Below, piece by piece: positions 14,996 to 40,556 of a stretch of DNA of 64,000 bases (position 1 is the first letter of the stretch; each line of letters starts with the position of its first letter). The notes beneath the pieces are model-generated. The model saw nothing but the letters and a program-made list of their open reading frames with translations. It did no database searches and was not told the DNA's origin. Both the position numbers and the translations under genes were made by a program. The DNA comes from Patescibacteria group bacterium (GTDB lineage: Bacteria; Patescibacteriota; Patescibacteriia; UBA10025; JAHIVO01): contig JBAZWB010000001.1 in NCBI GenBank assembly GCA_041660605.1, positions 558,503 to 622,502 on the forward strand. Reading direction: 5' to 3'.

Positions 14996-15280
14996 ATGAC
15001 AGTTATCTATGAAAAGCCACATGAAATAATTCGTGTCTTCGCGGATTTTCAAGTTCCGCACCTTGGAAAAGGTGCGGTGGAGCGTTTTGGGAATGTACGG
15101 CCGGTGGCTTTTTTTTGGGGCGGACGGCGGTATGAAGTAAAAAAAGTCAATCTGATTTTTCGCAAGCAAAGAGGAGACCGTTATGACATTTGCTTCGCGG
15201 TTTCCGATGAGGCCAACGCTTTTGTCTTATCATATAATCCGGAGAGCATGGAGTGGTGGCTGGAGGAAGTACGATGTTAA
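14996..15280 (+). CDS. Small hypothetical protein upstream of Y-family polymerase (candidate UmuD-analogue / YolD-like accessory subunit, unverified)
   Basis: 94 aa. No S24 peptidase Ser/Lys dyad. Positioned as the first gene of the operon with the UmuC-like polymerase. GC-rich like its partner. Confidence 0.45.
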   Translation: MTVIYEKPHEIIRVFADFQVPHLGKGAVERFGNVRPVAFFWGGRRYEVKKVNLIFRKQRGDRYDICFAVSDEANAFVLSYNPESMEWWLEEVRC

Positions 15281-15527
15281 TTAATAGTCACTCTGAGTGC
15301 AACGAAGAGTCACCTGACCTTCGGTCAGGAGATTCTCGCGTCGCTCCCTCACTTTGTTCGGGGCTCCTCAGAATGACAGAAAATGAACCGTTTATATTAT
15401 GCGACGAATTATCCTCCATTTCGACCCCGCATTTTTGATTATTCTATCTGGGTGCGGGGTGTCGCCCCACGGAAGAGAGAATTGTTTATTATAACTGAGT
15501 GCCTCGTGGGGCTCCACATGAATTATT

Positions 15528-16787
15528 ATGAAGCATAAGCGCATTATTTTACATTTTGATATGAATTCATATTTCGCCAGCGTGGAGCAGCAGGCTAACC
15601 CTTTTTTGCGGGGCAAACCGCTGGGAGTATGCTCAACCATGTCATACCGCGGCTGCATTATCGCTTCGTCAAAGGAAGCAAAAAAAGTCGGGATTAAAAC
15701 CGGCTGCCGCGTCAATGAAGCCCTGGAGATTTATAAAGATGTTATCCTGGTGGAAGTTGATCCGCCGAAGTATCGCTCTACTACTCAGCGGATTTTTTCC
15801 TTGTGTGCGGAATACACCGAGCAGATTGAGGCTTACTCCATTGATGAGGCGTTTCTGGATCTGACCGGCACGGTAAGTTCGCTTGAAGAGGCTGAAAAAA
15901 TCGCCAGGGAGATCCAGCTGCGCATTAAAAATGAAATAGGCGAGTGGCTAGGATGTTCAATGGGCATAGCGCCGACGCGCTGGCTGGCTAAATTTGGCAG
16001 CGACACCGCGCCTAAGGGTGGCATTGTTTTATTGGCCAGAGAAAATTTGCATCAGTATTTAAAAGGCCGCGACGTGCAGGAGGCCTGGGGGATTGCCGGA
16101 GCCATGGCCAGCCGCTTGGCAGAGTGCGGTATCTATACTCTTGACCAGCTGGCAGATTATCCGGTGCAGAACCTGATTTCCGTCATGGGCATCCAGGGAT
16201 ATTATTTATGGGCCAACGTGAATGGGATGGAACTGTCCGGCCTGGAGGTGAAGCGGCCGCCTAAGACCATCGGGCATTCGCATGTCCTGAAAAAGCGCAG
16301 TACCGACGCCAAGTTCAATCAGGCAGTGATTATGCGTTTGGCTGAGCGGACGGGCCGGCGCCTGCGCGACCAAGGCCTTGAAGCCCATGGCATCTATTGG
16401 GCTGTACAGTTTGACGACCGCGAAGGGCTCCATGGCAGCAAAAGGCTGGGCTATCCCATGCTGACTACCAGCCAGATCTTTCATTTTGTCTGGCAGACAG
16501 TGGCGCCGGCGGTGGCCAGGAACAAGCCGGGGTTTTTTGCCCTGGGTCTTTTCGGCTTGCGGCCGCAGGTGAACCAACTGTCGCTTTTTAGCGGTAAAAA
16601 AAGGCTGTCGCCGGAATTGTCGCGGGCTTTGGACGAGATAAATAATAAATACGGCGAAGAAACGGTGGTTCAGGGGCCATTGATAAATCTTGACGGCAGG
16701 CATGTGCCTGACCGCGTCGGGTTCAGAAAAACGATGGAAGCGGAGTTCAGCGGTATTGGCAATGAATACATCAGTGAAAGTGACTAG
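15528..16787 (+). CDS. Y-family DNA polymerase (UmuC/PolV-like translesion polymerase)
   Basis: 419 aa. ILHFDMNSYFASVEQ catalytic N-terminus. YRGCIIASSKEAK and SIDEAFLDLTG motifs resemble UmuC more than DinB. GC content far above the genome background. Confidence 0.85.
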   Translation: MKHKRIILHFDMNSYFASVEQQANPFLRGKPLGVCSTMSYRGCIIASSKEAKKVGIKTGCRVNEALEIYKDVILVEVDPPKYRSTTQRIFSLCAEYTEQIEAYSIDEAFLDLTGTVSSLEEAEKIAREIQLRIKNEIGEWLGCSMGIAPTRWLAKFGSDTAPKGGIVLLARENLHQYLKGRDVQEAWGIAGAMASRLAECGIYTLDQLADYPVQNLISVMGIQGYYLWANVNGMELSGLEVKRPPKTIGHSHVLKKRSTDAKFNQAVIMRLAERTGRRLRDQGLEAHGIYWAVQFDDREGLHGSKRLGYPMLTTSQIFHFVWQTVAPAVARNKPGFFALGLFGLRPQVNQLSLFSGKKRLSPELSRALDEINNKYGEETVVQGPLINLDGRHVPDRVGFRKTMEAEFSGIGNEYISESD

Positions 16788-16791
16788 ATGC

Positions 16792-16820
16792 TTGCAAGGG
16801 AAAAATAACTGTGCTATAGT
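16792..16820 (+). promoter_or_regulatory. Promoter TTGCAA-17-TATAGT
   Basis: Lies immediately after the polymerase stop codon (16785-16787). Confidence 0.45.
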
Positions 16821-16826
16821 GCAGGC

Positions 16827-16938
16827 ATGAATATTTTAGCAGCAAATAATAATTGGCAAACTGCCCTGAAAGCTGGGTAGTGTTGTGCTGTTAAAGTAAT
16901 TTATTTGATAAGCACTGCCCAGCTAGGGCAGTTTTTTT
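16827..16938 (+). ncRNA. Candidate about 110-nt small RNA (promoter to terminator, no ORF)
   Basis: Bounded by the TTGCAA-17-TATAGT promoter and the CTGCCC-agcta-GGGCAG-T7 terminator. Internal stem ACUGCCC/GGGUAGU. No start codon or SD. Confidence 0.35.
16915..16938 (+). terminator. Rho-independent terminator
   Basis: CTGCCC agcta GGGCAG followed by TTTTTTT. Confidence 0.65.
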
Positions 16939-16988
16939 GTTATATATATGAGAAAAATATATTTTATGAAAAACAGATGTACGTTTAA

Positions 16989-18257
16989 GTGGCGATTTTC
17001 GTTGAATTATTGTGTTTGATTAATAAATTAATAATTACACTTATGAATTCGCAAAATTTTAAAGTAAAAGCAACTCCTGATAAACTGGGTTTTTTTGGCA
17101 AATATGGCGGACAGCACGTACCCCCGCAGTTAAAGTTAGAATTAGATAAAATTACCTCTGCTTATTTGGCAGCAAAAAAAGATAAGGAATTTCAGGAAGA
17201 ATTAAGTTCATTGCTGAGAGATTACGTCGGCCGGCCGTCTCCATTGTATTTTGCTAAAAATTTAACAAAATATCTGGGTGGTGCGAAAGTGTATTTGAAA
17301 CGTGAGGATTTAAATCATACCGGCGCCCATAAAATCAACCACACATTGGGAGAGGCTTTACTGGCCAAAAGGATGGGGAAAAAGATTTTGCTGGCAGAAA
17401 CAGGAGCTGGGCAGCATGGAGTGGCTCTTTCTACGGCGGCAGTAATAGTAGGCTTGAAAGCGGAAATCCATATGGGTGCGATTGACTACGCCAAACAGCA
17501 TCCAAATGTTGTGCGCATGAAACTGCTGGGAGCGAAAGTCGTAAAAGTTGAAACCGGCGGACGCTGCCTGAAAGATGCGGTTGATAGCGCTTTCAACGCA
17601 TATATGCAGGATTTTGATAATACATTTTTTGGCATTGGTTCGGTTGTCGGTCCGCATCCATATCCGATGATGATCCGTGATTTCCAGTCAGTTGTCGGAC
17701 GCGAAGCGCGCAGGCAGATAATGGAACACACCGGAAAATTGCCTGATTATCTTATTGCCTGCGTTGGCGGAGGTTCAAATGCCATTGGCTTATTCCATGA
17801 ATTCATCGGTGATCAGATAAAAATGATCGGCGTTGAAGCCGGCGGCAGGGGGTTAGCAAAATTAGGCGATCATGCGGCTACCCTAACGCTGGGTCAGCCT
17901 GGCGTGATACATGGCATGTATACTTATCTGCTTCAGGATGAAAAAGGAGAACCGGCGCCGGTGCATTCCATTGCCTCAGGCCTGGATTATCCAGGCATCG
18001 GTCCGGCGCATTCAGAATTTAAAGACACCGGGCGGGTTAGCTATACAGTAGCTAATGATCAGGAAGCACTGGCGGCCTTTCAATTACTTTCAAAAATTGA
18101 AGGCATAATTCCGGCTCTTGAAAGCGCGCATGCCTTGGCGGAAGTGGTTAAATTGGCACCGACGCTAGATAAAAGCAAAGTAATCATACTAAATTTATCC
18201 GGCCGGGGAGACAAGGACGTGGATTATGTAGCAGAGCAGATCGGATTATCAGTATAG
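16989..18257 (+). CDS. trpB: Tryptophan synthase beta-like PLP enzyme (TrpB2 type). Likely true start at 17043
   Basis: [23 protein letters not shown]...[12 protein letters not shown]-lysine region. GGGSNAIG glycine loop. No other trp genes in the window. Confidence 0.85.
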
Positions 18258-31500: not shown

Positions 31501-31758
31501 CTATTTTTTTAGCCAAAGCGCTTTGAATAACGACAAGGTAAGGGTGGAAAGCAGAAACGCCACTGCCGGTACAATGGCATTGAGCCAGGGATGCGGCAGT
31601 TTGGCAAACAGGAAAAATACCACGATTACCAGGTAAGTCAGAATTAAAATAATAACTTTCCTGATCCAACTGGTTTCCCAAGCTTTATCAGCTTCTACAC
31701 GCCGGTTGCGGGCGTTAATTTCATTGATTTGATTTTGCAGATCGTCGATAGTAGTCAT
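31501..31758 (-). CDS. Small membrane protein (N-terminal amphipathic/coiled segment + 2 TM)
   Basis: 85 aa. Confidence 0.4.
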   Translation of the reverse strand: MTTIDDLQNQINEINARNRRVEADKAWETSWIRKVIILILTYLVIVVFFLFAKLPHPWLNAIVPAVAFLLSTLTLSLFKALWLKK

Positions 31759-32303: not shown

Positions 32304-32945
32304 TTATTTAAGTAAATTAATAATCTCCAAATGATCTTTAATTATATAATCCGGATGAAAAGCTTGCAATGAATCCAGCGAATAAAATTTTTCATGTTCT
32401 GGAGGATGATAAAGAGCTACCTGGCATTTCATCGATTTAGCGGCTTGAATGTCATTTGCGGCGTCTCCGATTACCAAGACATTTACCGGATCAACGCCGG
32501 CTTTATGGGCAAGAGTTTGAAAAATTATCGGTTTTTCAAACGGGCAATCGTCATAGCTTAAAATTACCTTGAAATATTGCTTAAGTTTAAAACGTTCCAA
32601 CGCTAGTTCAAAATTTGTTTGGCGCGCCAAAGAGCCAAGGCAAATGGTATAACCTTGATTTGTAAGTGCTTTTAAAGTCTCAATAATGTTTTTGTGTAAT
32701 TCAGCCTTTCTAAATCCTAGTCGTGCGCCTTCGTGATAATAATTTGAAAATGCCTCAACGTCTTTTATGCCAAAATTATGAGCGGCCACTTCATTCACAA
32801 TATTAAAGCACTTGCTGATAATTTCCTCGTCAGATGCTTCCAAGCCAAATTTGGCTATCGTTTTTCTGTATGCTTTTAGATGCCAGGGCAGAGTATCGAG
32901 TATTGTGCCGTCAAAATCGTAGATAATTGCTTGCGGTTTTTTCAT
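32304..32945 (-). CDS. HAD-IA family hydrolase (beta-phosphoglucomutase/phosphatase-like)
   Basis: 213 aa. IIYDFDGTILDT motif I. Downstream S/T, K and DD motifs. Confidence 0.75.
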   Translation of the reverse strand: MKKPQAIIYDFDGTILDTLPWHLKAYRKTIAKFGLEASDEEIISKCFNIVNEVAAHNFGIKDVEAFSNYYHEGARLGFRKAELHKNIIETLKALTNQGYTICLGSLARQTNFELALERFKLKQYFKVILSYDDCPFEKPIIFQTLAHKAGVDPVNVLVIGDAANDIQAAKSMKCQVALYHPPEHEKFYSLDSLQAFHPDYIIKDHLEIINLLK

Positions 32946-33511: not shown

Positions 33512-34570
33512 TTAAAACCCAAACCCGCGTTCCAATTTTTCATACCCGCCTCCAGGCAAAGAGCGGTAATAGCCTGAACCCTGCGGACCGCCGTCCCACT
33601 GGGAATTAAGCGGGGCTTCGTAATGCTCGCCGGTGGTTGGTGAATATACATTTTCATAACCCATGATCGCCTCCGTCCATTTATCCGACAGCGATACCTC
33701 GGGATTATCAGCACTATCAGAAGGGTCTGGCGTAGAAACGTCAACGCTGGAAGTTACCGGCCGCAGCTGTGAAACGCACCGGATGGTTAAAGCAACCGAA
33801 AAGGGGAGTGCGCCGCTAGAATCCCATTTATCGTTTGGCGTGTCCGCCATATATACTGACACCACATACGTGGTTGGGTCACTAAAATTATATGTCTTAT
33901 AAATAATCGCTCCTTGCCTGCCGGTTGAAGTAGTGAAATCGCGCTGGATAAAACCCTCGTAAATATCTTTTGGCTCACCAAGCGTAAAACCGCCGCTGGT
34001 AAAAGAACCGGTAAACGCATAGCTCAGCCAAGCGGTTAAAAACGATTCAGCGTCCGGATACATATATTTATACACCACGGCAATGCCCCAACCGGCGTGT
34101 TGGGATTTATCCGGCGAATACAGGTCTGTGCCGGTGCTTTCCGCGTTGCCGGTAAATGACCAATCTTCCGGCGCCAGTGCCTGGCAATGACCGGTTTGTT
34201 TTTCAATCAATTGAACAGCCGTATCATTTATTGTTTTGGCGGCGATTATGACATTCTGCTGATTTGAATTAACTGCTGTGTTAATTACAGTTTGATTCGT
34301 GTTGCCGTTGGTTTGCACGACTACCTGGCTGGCGTTAGTATTGCCGTTAACATTAGTATTTTGATTGGCAATAGTATTATTTACAACCGTAATATCTGAG
34401 TTTGCATTACTATTGGCGACTACGATAGATTTGTTTGATTCATTTGAATTTTTATTTGTTTTCATAAGCACAACTACGACGACAGCCAGTCCGATAATTA
34501 TAATTGCCATTACCAGTAAAATGATTTTAATGTTCTTTGGTGAATTTTTGATCGGGTTTTGATCTGGCAT
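33512..34570 (-). CDS. Membrane-anchored protein with Asn/Thr-rich low-complexity linker and C-terminal globular domain
   Basis: 352 aa. N-terminal TM. An N/T/V-rich stretch of about 90 aa. Confidence 0.45.
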   Translation of the reverse strand: MPDQNPIKNSPKNIKIILLVMAIIIIGLAVVVVVLMKTNKNSNESNKSIVVANSNANSDITVVNNTIANQNTNVNGNTNASQVVVQTNGNTNQTVINTAVNSNQQNVIIAAKTINDTAVQLIEKQTGHCQALAPEDWSFTGNAESTGTDLYSPDKSQHAGWGIAVVYKYMYPDAESFLTAWLSYAFTGSFTSGGFTLGEPKDIYEGFIQRDFTTSTGRQGAIIYKTYNFSDPTTYVVSVYMADTPNDKWDSSGALPFSVALTIRCVSQLRPVTSSVDVSTPDPSDSADNPEVSLSDKWTEAIMGYENVYSPTTGEHYEAPLNSQWDGGPQGSGYYRSLPGGGYEKLERGFGF

Positions 34571-34579
34571 AAATATTAA

Positions 34580-35353
34580 TTAATATTTTAGCGTATTTTT
34601 AATTATTTCAATTAATTTATCGTGTATTATTCCATTGGAGATTAAACCGCCTTTTGTCGGACCATCGTATTTTTGATCATTGCCGAACATATCGGTAACT
34701 TTACCTCCGGCTTCTTCAATAATGATTTTTTGCGCGGCAATGTCCCAGGGCGTGTTATGCGGAAATATATTGGCTACCGCTTCGCCACTGGCCACCAGAG
34801 CGCCTAAATAAGAAGTAGAGCCGGTTTGCATATTCATGCCCAATGAAATCAATTTAGTAACGGTGCCTGTCAGATCGTAGGTTGAATTATTCCAGACACA
34901 GATGCCGATTAAATTTCTGGAAATTGCCGCAACTTTTGAAACATGGATTTGTTCGTCATTCAAAAAAGCCCCTTTATTTTTTTCGGCAAAATAAAGACGG
35001 TCTGTAAATGGATTATAAATTACTCCTAATATTGGCTGGCCGTTCCTTAACAATGCAAGAGTGAAACAACAAACAGTCATTCCCGCAGAAAACGGTATGG
35101 TGCCGTCCAGAGGATCGCAAATCCAGACATACTCCGCTTTTTCGCTAAAACTTCCGCCTTCCTCACCGATAAAACCGTGGTTGGGAAATTCTTTCTTAAT
35201 GCTGTTTAATACCAAAAGATTTACTGTCTTGTCCACAATAGTCACAGGGGATTCATCGTGCTTGATTTCAATCTCGTGTTTGGTATTAAAATGCTGAGAA
35301 ATTATTTTACCGGCTTGCTCGGCCAGAGAAAGAGAAAAAGATTTGGGAGTCAT
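34580..35353 (-). CDS. Inositol monophosphatase / FIG family phosphatase (SuhB/CysQ-like)
   Basis: 257 aa. GEEGG and WICDPLDGT metal-binding motifs. Confidence 0.8.
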   Translation of the reverse strand: MTPKSFSLSLAEQAGKIISQHFNTKHEIEIKHDESPVTIVDKTVNLLVLNSIKKEFPNHGFIGEEGGSFSEKAEYVWICDPLDGTIPFSAGMTVCCFTLALLRNGQPILGVIYNPFTDRLYFAEKNKGAFLNDEQIHVSKVAAISRNLIGICVWNNSTYDLTGTVTKLISLGMNMQTGSTSYLGALVASGEAVANIFPHNTPWDIAAQKIIIEEAGGKVTDMFGNDQKYDGPTKGGLISNGIIHDKLIEIIKNTLKY

Positions 35354-35436
35354 AGTTTATTTAAGTTTAATATTTGTTTGAATATTCTTACGTGTCCGTC
35401 GAAGTAAAGCATAGGTGGAAGAATATTAGAATGTGA

Positions 35437-35468
35437 TATAGGAACGTTCGTCCGAACGTTCGAATGTT
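35437..35468 (-). promoter_or_regulatory. Conserved palindromic element A (tandem CGAACGTTCG-like sites), candidate operator/promoter module
   Basis: ATAGGAACGTTCGTCCGAACGTTCGAATGTTA, about 85 nt upstream of the IMPase-like gene start. Near-identical copy at 37488-37521. Confidence 0.45.
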
Positions 35469-35486
35469 ATTTTAAAGCGAATAATA

Positions 35487-36230
35487 TTATTTCTTTCTTG
35501 CCATAATTAAAATAGTTTTAATGGGAATTCGGATGGTTTTAGGATATTGATTAAGTTTTTGATGCAATTCAGCCAATGCCTGCTTCTTTCGTTTTTTAGA
35601 TAACGCCAGATACCAGGAAAATGATGTTTGCATGCTGATATAATCCGCTCTGCCCATTCGTATAGTTCGTCGGTACTCTTTGGTTGTTGCGTCAGTAAAA
35701 TTATGATGCCGTTTTAATCGTTGTATTATCTCTATTGCTTTTCCACCTTTGGCTGAGGAGTATTTTTTGTGCAGTTTCATGGCCCATTTGCCAATACCTT
35801 TATTATAATAATTAAAGTTCCAGAAGAGCGCCAGTACACCGCCGGGTTTGAGCAAAGCGCGGGTTTTGGTGAATTGAATGCCGGGCTTGATCCAATGAAA
35901 CGATTGCGCTGAATAAATAAGCTTAAAGTGGTTTTTCGGTAGTTTAATATTCTCAAATTGGCCGATTATGTACTTCATCCGCTGGTAGCGCTTTAATTTC
36001 TCTTTCGCGATACTGACCAGCTCCCGGCTAATGTCATTCGCAATTAAATGATTGCTGTAACGCACGAACGGTAGTGTTGCTTTTCCTGTACCAATCCCAA
36101 TTTCCAAAACCGGATCATTTTTTGTCAATTTACTGTATCTAATAATATCGCGAAAAAGGGGATCAGGGTACCCAAGCCGAGCCTTATCATATTGTTTTGG
36201 TATAGTGCTGAATGTTTCCTTGAGTTTCAC
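35487..36230 (-). CDS. Class I SAM-dependent methyltransferase
   Basis: 247 aa. VLEIGIGTGKATLPF glycine-rich SAM motif I, and acidic motif II. Confidence 0.75.
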   Translation of the reverse strand: MKLKETFSTIPKQYDKARLGYPDPLFRDIIRYSKLTKNDPVLEIGIGTGKATLPFVRYSNHLIANDISRELVSIAKEKLKRYQRMKYIIGQFENIKLPKNHFKLIYSAQSFHWIKPGIQFTKTRALLKPGGVLALFWNFNYYNKGIGKWAMKLHKKYSSAKGGKAIEIIQRLKRHHNFTDATTKEYRRTIRMGRADYISMQTSFSWYLALSKKRKKQALAELHQKLNQYPKTIRIPIKTILIMARKK

Positions 36231-36231
36231 G

Positions 36232-36939
36232 TTAAATTATTTTATTTGTTTTTGGTGAATGTAGTAATATTTTGTTTGTAATCAGACTTAGAGCGTATGT
36301 GACTAAAGATGCGCCTATTAACATATTTATTATAAGATGTAGCCATGCATGGTTAATTATAATCAAAGTTATCGTTTCTGCCATACTAGTATTGTTTTTT
36401 TGTAATTCTAAAAAATAATCTGATACTCTGGGAGTAAGCACTAAAAAAAGAATTAAAAATAAAACTATAAATCCCACAACTACAGTTTTATTTACACTCC
36501 ATTTAAATTTATCCTTTAGCCAGATAAAAAAGCCGACACATAAAGGTAGCCAGCCTATCTGTATAAAGAAATAAAGGATGATCTTATCTACATCATGAAA
36601 AAAAGTTTCCACACTATCAGCAATGCCCGGGATAATATACGACACAATTATAAGTATTGTTCCGGTTACCCAGTAACCTATAAAAATACCACAACTTAAC
36701 ATAACTAATGAATCAAATAAAGTATGTGTTTTTGAAAATCTTAAATAAATTGTTAAGGTTATAATTCCTAAAATCAATCCAATTAAATGGGGTAAAAAAG
36801 TAATTAAATTTGCATTTTGAATAAATAAGGTAAAGGTTCCTATAGCAATATATATTGAGGTAAATCCAAGCAATATGCCAAGGCAAATGTTACTAATATT
36901 CCGTTTTAAGTTGCTAAAATTTTCATTTGCTAATTGCAT
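36232..36939 (-). CDS. Polytopic membrane protein, unknown
   Basis: 235 aa, about 7 TM. Confidence 0.4.
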   Translation of the reverse strand: MQLANENFSNLKRNISNICLGILLGFTSIYIAIGTFTLFIQNANLITFLPHLIGLILGIITLTIYLRFSKTHTLFDSLVMLSCGIFIGYWVTGTILIIVSYIIPGIADSVETFFHDVDKIILYFFIQIGWLPLCVGFFIWLKDKFKWSVNKTVVVGFIVLFLILFLVLTPRVSDYFLELQKNNTSMAETITLIIINHAWLHLIINMLIGASLVTYALSLITNKILLHSPKTNKII

Positions 36940-36951
36940 ATTATTTATGAA

Positions 36952-37470
36952 TTATATATTTAATAATTTATTTGCCTGCAATAAAAATTCCAAGTCCCGT
37001 GCAAGTATAAAATTTCCATCATAATCAATCGGTTTATCGTTCTGCAGTAATTTTATTGCTTGGGGTAAGGGAGTCCACACTACTTCAAATTTACCATCTT
37101 TTTCCCATTTTGAAAGTTTTAGTTGTTTTTGTTCACCGACTGTTTTAACGATGTAGCAATATGATCGTCGATGTTCCTTTCGTTTGTCTTTGTATTCATC
37201 AATATATCCCAATTCAGAAGTAATTTTAACGTCATAGCCAACTTCTTCAAGACATTCGCGCAAGCAAGCTTGTTCGGATGTTTCTCCAGGTTCGATAGTA
37301 CCACCAGGAAGCTTGTGAATTTGATAAACGCCGGTTTTCATCAGCGCAACGTTATTTTGTATATCAAATATAACAGCACGGCTAGATTCTTGAAATGTAT
37401 AATTATTGCGTTTAATATCCTTAGCGTTTGGAAATAGATCTGAATCAGTTATTGTTTTTAAATGGGTCAT
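36952..37470 (-). CDS. NUDIX hydrolase
   Basis: 172 aa. Nudix box GGTIEPGETSEQACLRECLEEVGY. Confidence 0.8.
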   Translation of the reverse strand: MTHLKTITDSDLFPNAKDIKRNNYTFQESSRAVIFDIQNNVALMKTGVYQIHKLPGGTIEPGETSEQACLRECLEEVGYDVKITSELGYIDEYKDKRKEHRRSYCYIVKTVGEQKQLKLSKWEKDGKFEVVWTPLPQAIKLLQNDKPIDYDGNFILARDLEFLLQANKLLNI

Positions 37471-37487
37471 TTATGGTAGTTAATGTC

Positions 37488-37521
37488 ATAGGAACGTTCG
37501 CACGAACGTTCGAACGTGTTA
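37488..37521 (-). promoter_or_regulatory. Conserved palindromic element B (tandem CGAACGTTCG sites), candidate operator/promoter module
   Basis: ATAGGAACGTTCGCACGAACGTTCGAACGTGTTA, 18-50 nt upstream of the NUDIX start. It fills the 58-bp gap between the HD gene stop and the NUDIX start. Confidence 0.45.
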
Positions 37522-37528
37522 AATCATT

Positions 37529-38677
37529 TTAAAAATTTTTCTCAAGCGCTTTATAAAGCACTCCAAAATCAACCCCGCAGATTATTTTCCCAGCGTACAT
37601 ATGTGTCAGACTGATCCGCGCCTCGGATAATTTCTTGTTTGTTATGCCGTTTTGCAAAGCTAAATACGCTTCGAGGTAAGCAGCCAAGTGATCAATGGCT
37701 TTGATTAGATCGCCGTTTCGAAGAATGCGCCCGTTTTTTTCTTGTACCGTGAATTCATTTACCGTGAAGTATTTGATATCCTCGGCAATATTCGGAGGCA
37801 AGAGGGGATAGACCCGTCGCTTCATTTCATCATGTTCAAATTTTTTGACAAGATCTGACATTTTACCGACTTGTTTGATAGGCCGGATAACATCTCTGGT
37901 TAATGCTTCCGGAAGGTCATGGAACAAAGCGGTAAAGAAATTGTTAAAACAAACATCAACTTCGTCATTCCTGCTTTTGAGGAGATAGGTGATAATGGCC
38001 ACGATCAACATGTGGCCAAGGACTGATGTTTCCGGCACACGGTAAGTGTGGCTCCAACGTATCTGATACCGGAGCTGTCCGCACAGCTGGATGAAACGTC
38101 TGAGCTTTGGATCATTTTCAACTTCTTTTGCTGATTTGAGATGGCTGGTAGCTTTTTTAATGCTGGCCGTCAGATCCTGCTCAATCTCGGCGATGTCATA
38201 TCCGTCCGGGTTTGTCCGCTGGATAACGACAAATTCTTCCCAAGAAGCCAGGTAGTTAGCCGCGTCCATGATGCGGTGGTAGATCGTCGGAGCGTTTATC
38301 TTATCCAGGAGGTATTTTTCGTAGGCATCCAGGAATTTTTTATCAATAAAATATTGGTCTAATTCTTCTTTTGAATAATTAATCAGTTCTTTGTACGTTT
38401 TTACGTCTTTCTCTATCCGGTGGAATAATTGAGGTTTGAAATCCGTCAGGGTTAATCTTTGGAGAAACTCAAACACCCCGGCCTCAATCAGTTTGTGCCA
38501 GTCAAATGATTTTACCGGGCTCATTTTGCCGATCAAATAGGCGATAATGAATTTCTGGGCCTGCTTGTCTATTTCGCGGAAATCCACCGCGCGCACCTGG
38601 TCATTCCAGCGCTTGAGAAACGCGGCGTTGTAGAGGTAGAGGAGGAATTTATAATTAATAGTTTTGAGTTGAGGCAT
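37529..38677 (-). CDS. HD-domain phosphohydrolase (YfbR-like 5'-deoxynucleotidase core) with about 200-aa N-terminal extension
   Basis: 382 aa. SVLGHMLIVAIITYLL ... ALFHDLPEALTRDVIRPIK matches the YfbR H...HD...D pattern. Confidence 0.55.
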   Translation of the reverse strand: MPQLKTINYKFLLYLYNAAFLKRWNDQVRAVDFREIDKQAQKFIIAYLIGKMSPVKSFDWHKLIEAGVFEFLQRLTLTDFKPQLFHRIEKDVKTYKELINYSKEELDQYFIDKKFLDAYEKYLLDKINAPTIYHRIMDAANYLASWEEFVVIQRTNPDGYDIAEIEQDLTASIKKATSHLKSAKEVENDPKLRRFIQLCGQLRYQIRWSHTYRVPETSVLGHMLIVAIITYLLKSRNDEVDVCFNNFFTALFHDLPEALTRDVIRPIKQVGKMSDLVKKFEHDEMKRRVYPLLPPNIAEDIKYFTVNEFTVQEKNGRILRNGDLIKAIDHLAAYLEAYLALQNGITNKKLSEARISLTHMYAGKIICGVDFGVLYKALEKNF

Positions 38678-38748
38678 TTAAATAGTATTTATTATGAGGA
38701 AATAAATATGCCCAAGCAATGGGAGATAGGGAAGGTTATGTGGGCATG

Positions 38749-39402
38749 TTAATTGGAAAAATCAATTATGCTAATTATTGGATTATTTTTCGTTCCATCC
38801 CAATTAATTTCAATATCTGCTTTCAAAAATGATCCACGTTTTTCATTTAATTCTAACACTATGTACGTCTTCCCTGGATTAAGTGTAGACCATTTGGATA
38901 TTTCTCTCCCTGCAGATAATGCAAGCTGTAGCATAGGTGATTCATTTTTTGGCATAATTAAGTTAGCAATATCAAGACTAACTTCCTGTTGGGGGTATAT
39001 GTTTCTATAAAGTCGATTTGAATGTAACTGACTATGTGTCCAAAAAAGTGGTAAAGGAATATATTTAGGCTGTTTCCCATCAGAATCAATTTTTTTTATA
39101 ATATTTGCTTCAACGTCACTCGCTGAGATATAGCTCGTATTTTTTATTGATAATCTAACTACTTTAAGCCAAATTTGTTGCTCGATAGTATTACTACCAA
39201 ATGGTCTTAATTTCGGTTTGTGTAATGTTTTAAACCATTCAGAAGATATTGCAACAACAACCGCACTAATCCCAAGAAAAATGGTTCCAACTGCTGTCCA
39301 CTCTTGAGAGGTCCATTGAATAATGTATTTTAATCCTATAACAAGGTAGATTAAAATTACACCAATTATTAGAACAGATAATATTCCTTTATTCCACGAC
39401 AT
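38749..39402 (-). CDS. 2-TM membrane protein with C-terminal soluble domain, unknown (integrase-adjacent)
   Basis: 217 aa. Confidence 0.4.
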   Translation of the reverse strand: MSWNKGILSVLIIGVILIYLVIGLKYIIQWTSQEWTAVGTIFLGISAVVVAISSEWFKTLHKPKLRPFGSNTIEQQIWLKVVRLSIKNTSYISASDVEANIIKKIDSDGKQPKYIPLPLFWTHSQLHSNRLYRNIYPQQEVSLDIANLIMPKNESPMLQLALSAGREISKWSTLNPGKTYIVLELNEKRGSFLKADIEINWDGTKNNPIISIIDFSN

Positions 39403-39415
39403 ATATTTTTAACTA

Positions 39416-40348
39416 TTATTTTTCCAACGGATGATATTTGCGATGCGATCGTTCAGCATATTTATCAGAAGCATTAACGTAACGAGTAGTAGTATCTAAT
39501 GATTCATGGCCAAGCAGTATTTGAATGGCGGCGGGGCTTGCTCCATTTTCTGCCAAGTAAGTGGCAAAACCGTGGCGCAGGCTATGAGCCGAAGTGGGCA
39601 CATTGATTCTTAAACGCTCGCGGTATTGTTTTATTTTCATTTGCAGATAATTATTTGAGACCCGGGCGTCTCCGGAAGCGGCATTGGCCCCGCGATAGGG
39701 GATAAAGAGCGCAGGATGGTTGTCGCCTCTTGAACGCAGATATTTTTCCAAAATTAATTTAGCTCTGTCAGTCAGATAAACAAACCTCTGCTTGCGTCCT
39801 TTGCCCTCGATGAATATCTTGCCGGAATTGTCTATCTGGTTCTTATTTAATTTTATCAGTTCTGAAATGCGCATGCCAGTGGCAAACAGGACTTCCAACA
39901 TAGCCCGGTTGCGCAGAGCCACATCTTTATTTTTTTCAAATTCGCTGGGGGATTCAATCAGCCTGACAATGTCAATTAATTCGGCTACCTGCGGATGCTT
40001 CTTGATAGTCTTGGTTAATCTGACCATTTGAGGCGAAATTGGCGTGGGATAGTCATTATCTATTAAATACTTCAGAAAAGACCGTAAAACCGACAACATC
40101 CGGTTAATAGAGTAAAAATTGAGCTTTTTAAGGCCTTTTTGGTCTTGGGCTGTCATTCTATCACGTGAGGTAAGGAAAGCCTTATACAGCTCAATATCGC
40201 GCTTCTGGAGGGCCTTGAAAGTCTTTTTAGCCTCATTATCAATATAGTGCTCAAAGACCTGCAGATCCCGTTCGTAGTTATAGATAGTCTCGTCGGAGTA
40301 GTTGTTTGTTTTAATATTTAATAAGAAATCGTCTAAGTGTGGAAGCAT
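39416..40348 (-). CDS. Tyrosine site-specific recombinase (XerC/XerD/phage integrase family)
   Basis: 310 aa. R...AHSLRHGFAT...LLGHESLDTTTRYV catalytic R-H-R-Y motifs. Confidence 0.8.
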   Translation of the reverse strand: MLPHLDDFLLNIKTNNYSDETIYNYERDLQVFEHYIDNEAKKTFKALQKRDIELYKAFLTSRDRMTAQDQKGLKKLNFYSINRMLSVLRSFLKYLIDNDYPTPISPQMVRLTKTIKKHPQVAELIDIVRLIESPSEFEKNKDVALRNRAMLEVLFATGMRISELIKLNKNQIDNSGKIFIEGKGRKQRFVYLTDRAKLILEKYLRSRGDNHPALFIPYRGANAASGDARVSNNYLQMKIKQYRERLRINVPTSAHSLRHGFATYLAENGASPAAIQILLGHESLDTTTRYVNASDKYAERSHRKYHPLEK

Positions 40349-40556
40349 ATATTATTAATTATCGGCTAAGCCATACATATTGTTAATAGGGTAGTTTCTG
40401 GCTATTTTAACGGAGTGTAAGGGTTATTATACCTAGTTATACCTTTAGCATAACATGGGCGTTTTTATAGGTCAATTCAATTATATAATAAAAGGTCTTC
40501 CGGAGTGAATCAGAAGACCTTATCAACTTATTTAATCTTGTAGTAGGTCGTAGGAA

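Follow-up and report, generated by a model that had tools for sequence, protein, structure and literature searches.

We have analysed a run of seven genes on the minus strand (positions 34580-40348) of a 64,000-nt stretch of DNA from a Patescibacteria group bacterium, hereafter called the window, which is headed by a tyrosine recombinase and also encodes an HD protein, a NUDIX hydrolase, a methyltransferase (MTase), an IMPase-family protein and two membrane proteins. A first-pass annotation of this sequence had seen in it an integrase-adjacent, possibly mobile module of nucleotide-acting enzymes that might serve phage defence or counter-defence or, alternatively, form a damage-inducible regulon for nucleotide sanitising. 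Using profile searches against Pfam and NCBIfam, a direct check of motifs and a hydropathy scan, we find seven minus-strand open reading frames (ORFs) at exactly the coordinates first noted, and the domain calls that went with them are borne out. The genes and the features around them are as follows, with TM standing for transmembrane and aa for amino acids.

40349-40556, minus strand: non-coding block upstream of the recombinase gene (xer), conserved in a three-genome alignment (counterparts at ~3000-3218 in L003 and ~880-1061 in L004, see below)
39416-40348, minus strand: tyrosine recombinase of 310 aa, with Phage_integrase and SAM-like N-terminal domains
38749-39402, minus strand: 2-TM protein of 217 aa, two TM segments at the N-terminus, without a family match
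37529-38677, minus strand: HD protein of 382 aa, HD_3/YfbR-like at aa 195-345
38108-38677, minus strand: N-domain of the HD protein (aa 1-190), read as a degenerate YfbR-like HD fold with no metal-binding histidines
37529-38107, minus strand: C-domain of the HD protein (aa 191-382), an intact YfbR-like HD domain (PF13023, 5.5e-23; PF12917, 5.9e-17)
37488-37517 (core 37492-37511), no strand assigned: candidate operator copy A, between the HD stop and NUDIX start codons
36952-37470, minus strand: NUDIX hydrolase of 172 aa (PF00293, E 2.3e-16), with a canonical box
36232-36939, minus strand: membrane protein ("7-TM") of 235 aa, with 6-7 hydrophobic segments and no family match
35487-36230, minus strand: class I S-adenosylmethionine-dependent MTase of 247 aa (Methyltransf_25/11/12)
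35438-35467 (core 35442-35461), no strand assigned: candidate operator copy B, past the stop codon of MTase and ahead of the IMPase gene
34580-35353, minus strand: IMPase-family protein of 257 aa (PF00459, E 4.9e-55, 187 bits)
33512-34570, minus strand, beyond the run: membrane-anchored protein of 352 aa, with a single N-terminal TM segment and an N/T/V-rich linker

Gene order was compared at six loci of the clade, namely the window and the loci labelled L003, L004, L209, L211 and L210 (op marks the candidate operator).

Window: Xer-2TM-HD-(op)-NUDIX-7TM-MTase-(op)-IMPase
L003: Xer-TIR-DUF1905-HD-x-IMPase-GNAT-x-Prx-MTase-x-MTase
L004: Xer-(six small ORFs)-MTase-HD-IMPase
L209: Xer-NYN-HD-IMPase
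L211: IMPase-x-NUDIX-x-x-HD
L210: x-x-HD-(NAD-binding protein)

The recombinase gene lies upstream of HD in four of these genomes (window, L003, L004, L209), and the order HU-DUF4342-x-Xer is found in the window and L003, the two whose contigs extend that far. On its far side in the window follow AspRS, SerRS, Alr, Ddl, an FtsQ-like POTRA protein, HU and DUF4342, and the neighbouring genes are unchanged in contigs of the locus read from independent assemblies. Orthologs in L003, L004 and L209 are 79%, 75% and 86% identical to the window recombinase (the last being a C-terminal fragment), which exceeds the identities of HD (59-68%) and IMPase (48-52%) among the relatives, and the G+C content (GC) of these three xer-carrying genomes spans 0.39 to 0.51. 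In all three, the recombinase shows the vertical inheritance in a conserved chromosomal context that marks Xer proteins. By sequence, it matches the XerC model of NCBIfam with an E-value of 9.5e-56 over aa 8-308, and the XerD and XerA models also match over their full length. The closest solved structures are XerD (1a0p) and XerA, to whose catalytic R, H-x-x-R, H and Y those of the window protein align; the corresponding motifs in the alignment with 1a0p read ATGMRISE, HSLRHGFAT and LGHESLDTTTRY. Together with the SAM-like N-domain and a length of ~300 aa typical of XerC, XerD and XerA, these features suggest that we are probably dealing with a housekeeping chromosome-dimer resolvase of the Xer type. 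Its matches to 'integrase' families in PHROG are such as any tyrosine recombinase would give. The first-pass annotation had taken the recombinase as a hint of mobility; because the protein is Xer-like and syntenic with core genes, we do not read it as one.

Some of our findings weigh against a resolvase role. The protein scores below the equivalog cut-offs of the XerC (189 vs 335 bits) and XerD (176 vs 330 bits) models, which draw mainly on well-studied phyla. Nor did the window yield a dif site: with as many as 8 substitutions allowed, nothing in it matched the dif sequences of E. coli or B. subtilis, and the XerD-arm matches that it does contain are noise in AT-rich DNA. Also in contrast to XerC, XerD and XerA, the gene slot directly downstream is variable. 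Xer systems with a single recombinase include XerS, XerH and XerA (PMC1914069, PMC3325230, PMC2958812), and our literature search on Xer and dif in the Candidate Phyla Radiation (CPR) found nothing relevant.

Upstream of xer, the non-coding region of ~200 nt keeps 61 invariant columns across the window, L003 and L004, genomes that share no more than 75-79% identity at the protein level. Conserved motifs in it are TTGACC, GGTATAATAnCnCTTACAC, AAAAnnCCCTAT and CCCTAT. The block contains promoter-like and terminator-like matches, and scans with promoter and terminator consensus sequences were not enriched over shuffled sequence. It could represent a strong promoter plus leader, a site for a regulator or the recombinase's own site.

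Downstream of xer, the slot that separates it from HD has a different content in every relative: the 2-TM protein in the window (38749-39402), TIR plus DUF1905 in L003 (4174-5379), six small ORFs plus an MTase in L004 (2266-6530) and a NYN nuclease in L209 (151-651). The 2-TM protein has no match in Pfam, NCBIfam, PADLOC or PHROG, and its family is sparse, with 115 representative clusters found in unrelated contexts. In the relatives, the slot proteins with matches in PADLOC are TIR (PDC-S66, 7e-20; ThsB, 1e-8) and the NYN nuclease. As a side observation, the slot resembles a small accessory or defence hotspot.

HD and IMPase genes occur together in five of the six clade loci, with NUDIX present in two and MTase in three. 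In the window the HD-IMPase pair is split by a ~2-kb insert consisting of NUDIX, the orphan 7-TM gene and MTase, and this insert is, judged by the gene orders above, specific to the lineage. Because HD, IMPase, NUDIX and MTase cluster repeatedly in the clade, our data argue for some functional link among these hydrolases. Outside the clade, tblastn searches within 10 kb of HD at 80 loci from other phyla found almost no homolog of IMPase, MTase, NUDIX or Xer, and a Pfam census of 150 immediate HD neighbours returned 207 families, the commonest of them seen in 5/150 and all four partner families absent from the 25 most frequent. The idea of a nucleotide-enzyme module thus holds in part for the clade, where the partners do cluster, and fails as a neighbourhood that recurs with the HD protein elsewhere. 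Indeed, synteny with core genes and no fixed linkage between the HD N-domain and its partners, the very pattern that the first-pass annotation had set against its own proposal, is largely what the comparison returned. In one Chloroflexota locus (L006, 4564-9215) an HD ortholog lies near NAD kinase, GNAT, NUDIX and MTase genes, an arrangement that is not recurrent in the 80-locus census.

The N-domain of the HD protein had been described as novel and free of recognisable motifs. The latter is true for Pfam and NCBIfam, neither of which has a match to aa 1-190; profile and fold searches, on the other hand, place it among HD domains. Specifically, a profile search found the HD phosphohydrolase Lin2634 of Listeria (3mzo) with an E-value of 0.008 and nearly full-length coverage, and an AlphaFold2 model of the N-domain alone (pLDDT 80.9) gave OxsA, Lin2634 and YfbR as the top Foldseek matches (probability 1.0, TM-scores 0.52-0.62), so that structure prediction returns a YfbR-like HD fold and not a new one. 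The model of the full-length protein reached a pLDDT of 87.8 and a pTM of 0.90, with one half matching HDDC2, YfbR and OxsA. What sets the N-domain apart is that the motifs RWND, DKQA(H/Q)K and LTD(L/F)KP (in the window DKQAQK and LTDFKP) stand where RW, H and HD would be, the RW pair being retained and the histidines lost. In the C-domain, by contrast, 30 homologs show no variation at R207-W208, H222, H253-D254, E257, D262 and D329, and alignment to YfbR and OxsA shows that the metal ligands, the catalytic Glu, the RW pair and the Asp equivalent to D77 of YfbR are all kept. Across these 30 aligned sequences, conservation of the N-domain equals that of the C-domain.

In our reading, two HD folds are fused in this protein, of which one is catalytic and the other degenerate. 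Its C-domain is probably the catalyst, a phosphohydrolase for which we infer (deoxy)nucleoside 5'-monophosphate substrates, and the N-domain is probably a structural or regulatory partner in the role that the second subunit plays in YfbR dimers; by analogy, the two folds may pack like a YfbR homodimer. While both halves share the fold of YfbR, HDDC2 and OxsA (PF12917, PF13023) and the C-domain has their H...HD...D ligands, catalytic Glu and RW, these relatives consist of single-domain, dimerising subunits of ~190-200 aa, whereas the window protein joins two HD-like folds, the first without histidines, in one chain of 382 aa. The protein passes the Pfam domain cut-offs and stays below that of the YfbR equivalog NF003009 (40.7 bits vs 122). 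Speaking against a duplication, a comparison of the N- with the C-half (hhalign, HD alignment) was not significant (probability ~1%), and the claim rests on the weak profile match to Lin2634 plus fold similarity (Foldseek E ~0.03, probability 1.0).

The HD protein has an identical counterpart in a Patescibacteria-group metagenome-assembled genome with a longest contig of 960 kb. Its homologs number at least 2,984. Among the best 120, query coverage is 95-100% and identity 42-68%, and the phyla represented are Omnitrophota, Planctomycetota (Scalindua), Chloroflexota, Nitrospirota, Desulfobacterota, Actinomycetota and Patescibacteria. Based on 600 pattern matches in species-representative genomes, the tandem-HD architecture of ~380 aa is present in at least 594 species of many phyla, which is hard to square with a novel domain. 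There is no solved structure of the tandem family among the structural matches, and our literature search found no characterised member. The family matches phrog_30941 at 2.4e-63; 2/50,697 phage records carry it, both derived from prophages of Helicobacter (H. pylori). In the record examined (Helicobacter phage Pt11444_1, PQ159899.1, 5965-7185), a tandem-HD homolog of 406 aa with 36% identity and 98% coverage is encoded at the extreme end, on the far side of the integrase, with a Fic gene as its neighbour. Homologs of this type probably explain phrog_30941 and imply that the family also occurs in Helicobacter. With two records, and the gene of the one examined located at a prophage edge beyond the integrase, we reject a phage origin and regard the tandem-HD family as essentially cellular.

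The remaining enzymes of the run have intact signatures. In the NUDIX hydrolase, the box GX5EX7REUXEEXGU is present as GTIEPGETSEQACLRECLEEVGY starting at G57; the MutT model of NCBIfam matches weakly (1e-7), and the closest homolog (63% identity) is the one in the IMPase-x-NUDIX-x-x-HD cluster of L211. The MTase, predicted to be of the small-molecule type, has LEIGIGTG as motif I and the HvrF MTase as its closest solved relative (E 2.8e-10), and an ortholog of 57% identity is located 2.6 kb downstream of HD in L003. All metal-binding motifs are found in the IMPase-family protein (GEE at 63, DPLDGT at 80, WDIAA at 203), whose orthologs lie beside or near HD in L003, L004, L209 and L211. It resembles the dual-specificity IMPase/FBPase of T. 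maritima (TM1415, 2p3n, the closest solved relative, E 6e-36) and archaeal relatives over its whole length, and differs in that it also matches the HisN and CysQ models, in each case below their cut-offs. The gene for the 352-aa protein is separated from IMPase by 9 nt and is probably co-transcribed with it; the protein has no match in Pfam, NCBIfam, PADLOC or PHROG. As for the 7-TM protein, its sole match among 5.8 billion proteins is itself, and its gene has the lowest GC of the neighbourhood (0.305). With this protein an orphan and the relatives of the NUDIX hydrolase found next to other neighbours, a conserved NUDIX-7TM-MTase cassette was considered and rejected.

Outside the run, a HAD-family hydrolase gene (32304-32945, minus strand) lies 1.6 kb downstream, and its 57% ortholog directly adjoins the HD ortholog in another Patescibacteria genome (L061, 7108-7746), which adds one more phosphatase to those loosely grouped around HD. 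A protein of ~84-87 aa (31507-31758, minus strand) is 77% identical to one encoded between two MTase genes in L003 (10002-10265) and represents a further fragment of shared, rearranged synteny.

The first-pass annotation had also proposed that the last two units of the run are gated by a shared palindromic operator, and the palindrome is real: GAACGTTCG-NN-CGAACGTTC has exactly two copies in 64 kb (35442-35461 and 37492-37511), with 0 expected from shuffled sequence. Both copies lie within a 30-nt direct repeat, the two versions of which are 90% identical. On the coding strand, the palindrome comes after a -10-like TAAAAT hexamer, 7 nt away from it at the IMPase copy and 14 nt at the NUDIX copy, and the start codon follows after ~90 nt in the case of IMPase and 21 nt in that of NUDIX. 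From this arrangement it is supported that the NUDIX-7TM-MTase and IMPase units share one candidate operator and would make up a small regulon.

When metagenomes were scanned for the exact palindrome, at least 119 contigs were found, and the linkage counts given here refer to the 119 contigs among the matches listed (loci L087-L205). The extended consensus of these copies is WWGCGAACGTTCG-NN-CGAACGTTCGCWW. A LacI-family homolog, consisting by Pfam of the LacI helix-turn-helix and Peripla_BP domains, is encoded on 84/119 contigs, and on 82/119 its gene begins downstream of the palindrome at a median distance of 23 nt. At 71 of these 82 LacI-linked sites, a hexamer matching TATAAT at 5-6 positions is located upstream with a modal gap of 6-7 nt, which is the geometry of the IMPase site in the window (7 nt). 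LacI regulators account for 41/88 of the genes directly downstream of the palindrome, there is no SOS function among the 25 most frequent families, and the surroundings are rich in sugar ABC transporters (28 binding proteins and 20 permeases of 109), GH65 phosphorylases, GH13 amylases and beta-PGM-like HAD proteins. Because a promoter-proximal palindrome elsewhere precedes LacI genes within sugar-utilisation loci, the element in the window looks like a LacI-type, metabolite-responsive candidate operator and not like an SOS box. Three or four tandem copies of the unit CGAACGTTCGCC were observed at four of the loci (L178, L205, L188, L116).

Comparing the window sites with those of the LacI subfamily that appears to be autoregulated through WWGCGAACGTTCG-NN-CGAACGTTCGCWW, the 18 specified core bases including the AACGTT cores are identical and the hexamer lies 6-7 nt upstream in the LacI-linked sites, whereas the controlled genes are NUDIX, 7-TM, MTase and IMPase rather than sugar transporters and glycosidases. 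Several points count against extending the LacI assignment to our locus: there is no LacI-family gene in the 64-kb window; none of the LacI-linked loci among the listed contigs has homologs of the window NUDIX, IMPase or MTase; one outer base differs (GGAACG in the window, GCGAACG in the LacI-linked consensus); and the operator is absent from the close relatives L003, L004, L061 and L209-L212, so that the regulon cannot be checked by conservation. Literature searches with the motif string returned papers on CpG oligonucleotides only, and those on LexA or LacI in Patescibacteria nothing relevant.

How far, then, do other explanations account for the two repeats? They might be RNA hairpins that act as terminators or as processing or stability elements, or else scars left by insertion of the NUDIX-7TM-MTase block. 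Each copy does follow the stop codon of the preceding gene by 18-26 nt, can fold into an 8-bp hairpin (-10.4 and -11.8 kcal/mol, one of them picked up in the terminator-like scan on the non-coding strand), and the two exactly bracket the 2,050-bp block that relatives lack between HD and IMPase. With no U-tract on the coding strand, modest folding z-scores (-3.0, -1.8) and a position promoter-proximal to LacI genes in unrelated organisms with conserved spacing to the -10 hexamer, which is the signature of a DNA operator, we consider this unlikely, and a scar would in any case be compatible with an operator, as a promoter-operator segment could have been duplicated. The notion that the palindrome is a LexA box and the locus a damage-inducible, SOS-type regulon for nucleotide sanitising draws on the fact that GAAC-N4-GTTC is the Gram-positive type of LexA box; the palindrome holds both tetramers and can also be read as GTTC-N4-GAAC, and NUDIX enzymes include sanitisers of the MutT type. 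Here, however, the tetramers abut as GAACGTTC, which is the wrong spacing, there is no lexA- or recA-linked copy in the window, and our literature search gave no matching LexA motif for the phylum. Seen together with the LacI regulators and sugar-utilisation genes that accompany the palindrome in place of SOS genes among the listed matches, damage control is, to us, barely credible.

Similar considerations apply to mobility and defence, i.e. to the proposal that the run is an integrase-borne mobile island whose HD, NUDIX, MTase and IMPase proteins form an undescribed nucleotide-pool system directed against, or used by, phages. In its favour, defence islands do contain HD, NUDIX and MTase domains. 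In PADLOC-DB 2.0 the MTase matches mad2 (2.6e-16) and the NUDIX hydrolase PDC-S07 (4e-9); TIR and NYN occupy the xer-adjacent slot of relatives; and HD, IMPase and NUDIX cluster again in L211. Unlike the components of known anti-phage systems, though, the two window matches are partial and stop at the level of generic domains, HD, 2-TM, 7-TM, IMPase and Xer have no PADLOC match, no window protein has one at system level, and the partners do not co-occur outside one clade. Add to this that the recombinase is Xer-like and in synteny with core genes, that the 7-TM protein is an orphan, that the HD family is next to absent from phage records, and that hallmarks of an island are missing from the window: the search for att-like direct repeats flanking the run, which the first-pass annotation had recommended, yielded merely 16-17-nt AT-rich chance repeats, there are no tRNA or tmRNA genes, no mobile-element cargo (PHROG matches being generic only) and no shift in composition, the GC of the run (0.31-0.41) falling inside the range of the window (0.29-0.50). 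We therefore find a mobile defence island very improbable. A narrower version sees the recombinase as an accessory integrase or cassette recombinase, integron-like or similar to IMEX (integrative mobile elements exploiting Xer), that services the slot downstream of it instead of resolving chromosome dimers. Slot contents that differ in every relative and are partly of defence type, the strongly conserved non-coding block upstream, and scores below the XerC/D equivalog cut-offs with additional matches to XerA and integron-integrase models would be in line with this; no repeated recombination sites bound the slot, however, the gaps from xer to the 2-TM gene and on to HD are merely 13 and 71 nt, the integron-integrase models score 70 bits against 189 for XerC, and the sample comprises four genomes, which leaves this option, in our view, improbable. 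We are just as doubtful about a further, joint scenario, in which the slot would be a recombinase-serviced integration hotspot that swaps small accessory or defence cargo (TIR, NYN, 2-TM) like a dif-adjacent IMEX or a one-slot integron, the conserved block upstream of xer would be part of a recombination or regulatory site, and the histidine-less N-terminal HD fold would act as an allosteric nucleotide sensor of a fused, pseudo-heterodimeric nucleotidase.

A few observations concern the window at large. No element of Rfam matches anywhere in it. Positions 15001-17000 stand out by a local GC of 0.47-0.50 compared with ~0.38 and contain two plus-strand ORFs of ~420 aa, again with no Rfam match. 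The cumulative GC skew has its maximum at ~43-44 kb, a few kb from xer, and gene orientation switches at ~6.5 kb (divergent) and ~28.3 kb (convergent), neither of which coincides with the skew maximum; as a pointer to the replication terminus, that maximum is no more than suggestive.

Returning to a core-chromosomal origin, we hold it moderately probable that, taken as a whole, the run belongs to the core chromosome of a Patescibacteria bacterium and is a Xer-adjacent phosphohydrolase cluster with LacI-type operators rather than a mobile element or phage-defence module. Under this model, a housekeeping xer gene would be followed by a variable slot, filled here by the 2-TM gene, and then by the clade-conserved pair of tandem-HD and IMPase genes, split by the 2-kb insert. 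Three transcription units may be envisaged: xer-2TM, possibly extending into HD and driven by the conserved promoter region ahead of xer, NUDIX-7TM-MTase, and IMPase together with the 352-aa protein. A repressor of the LacI family, encoded elsewhere in the ~1-Mb genome, would most likely bind both palindromes and block transcription initiation or promoter clearance at the NUDIX and IMPase units until a small molecule, in all likelihood a sugar or sugar phosphate, acts as effector and releases it. The enzymes, all of them predicted to be active, are a NUDIX pyrophosphohydrolase, a YfbR-like monophosphate phosphohydrolase, a phosphatase of the IMPase/FBPase type and a small-molecule MTase. On balance, their net effect may be to provide metabolite-responsive phosphohydrolases for salvage or housecleaning of nucleotides and sugar phosphates in an organism of reduced biosynthetic capacity.

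What our findings imply is, in the first place, that a new mobile system acting on nucleotide pools is not supported and that an ordinary chromosomal locus takes its place, which removes a false lead. A family of at least 594 species that has been annotated solely as 'HD domain-containing protein' can now be described as a fused HD pair, and this gives biochemistry a hypothesis to work with. For comparative genomics of CPR bacteria, the variable and partly defence-flavoured slot beside xer offers an inexpensive target. In many uncultured bacteria, finally, the 20-bp operator ties a LacI subfamily to loci for disaccharides and maltodextrin, and in a CPR genome it may tie that subfamily to NUDIX and IMPase genes as well, hinting that sugar availability could control the expression of phosphohydrolases in an organism with very few regulators.

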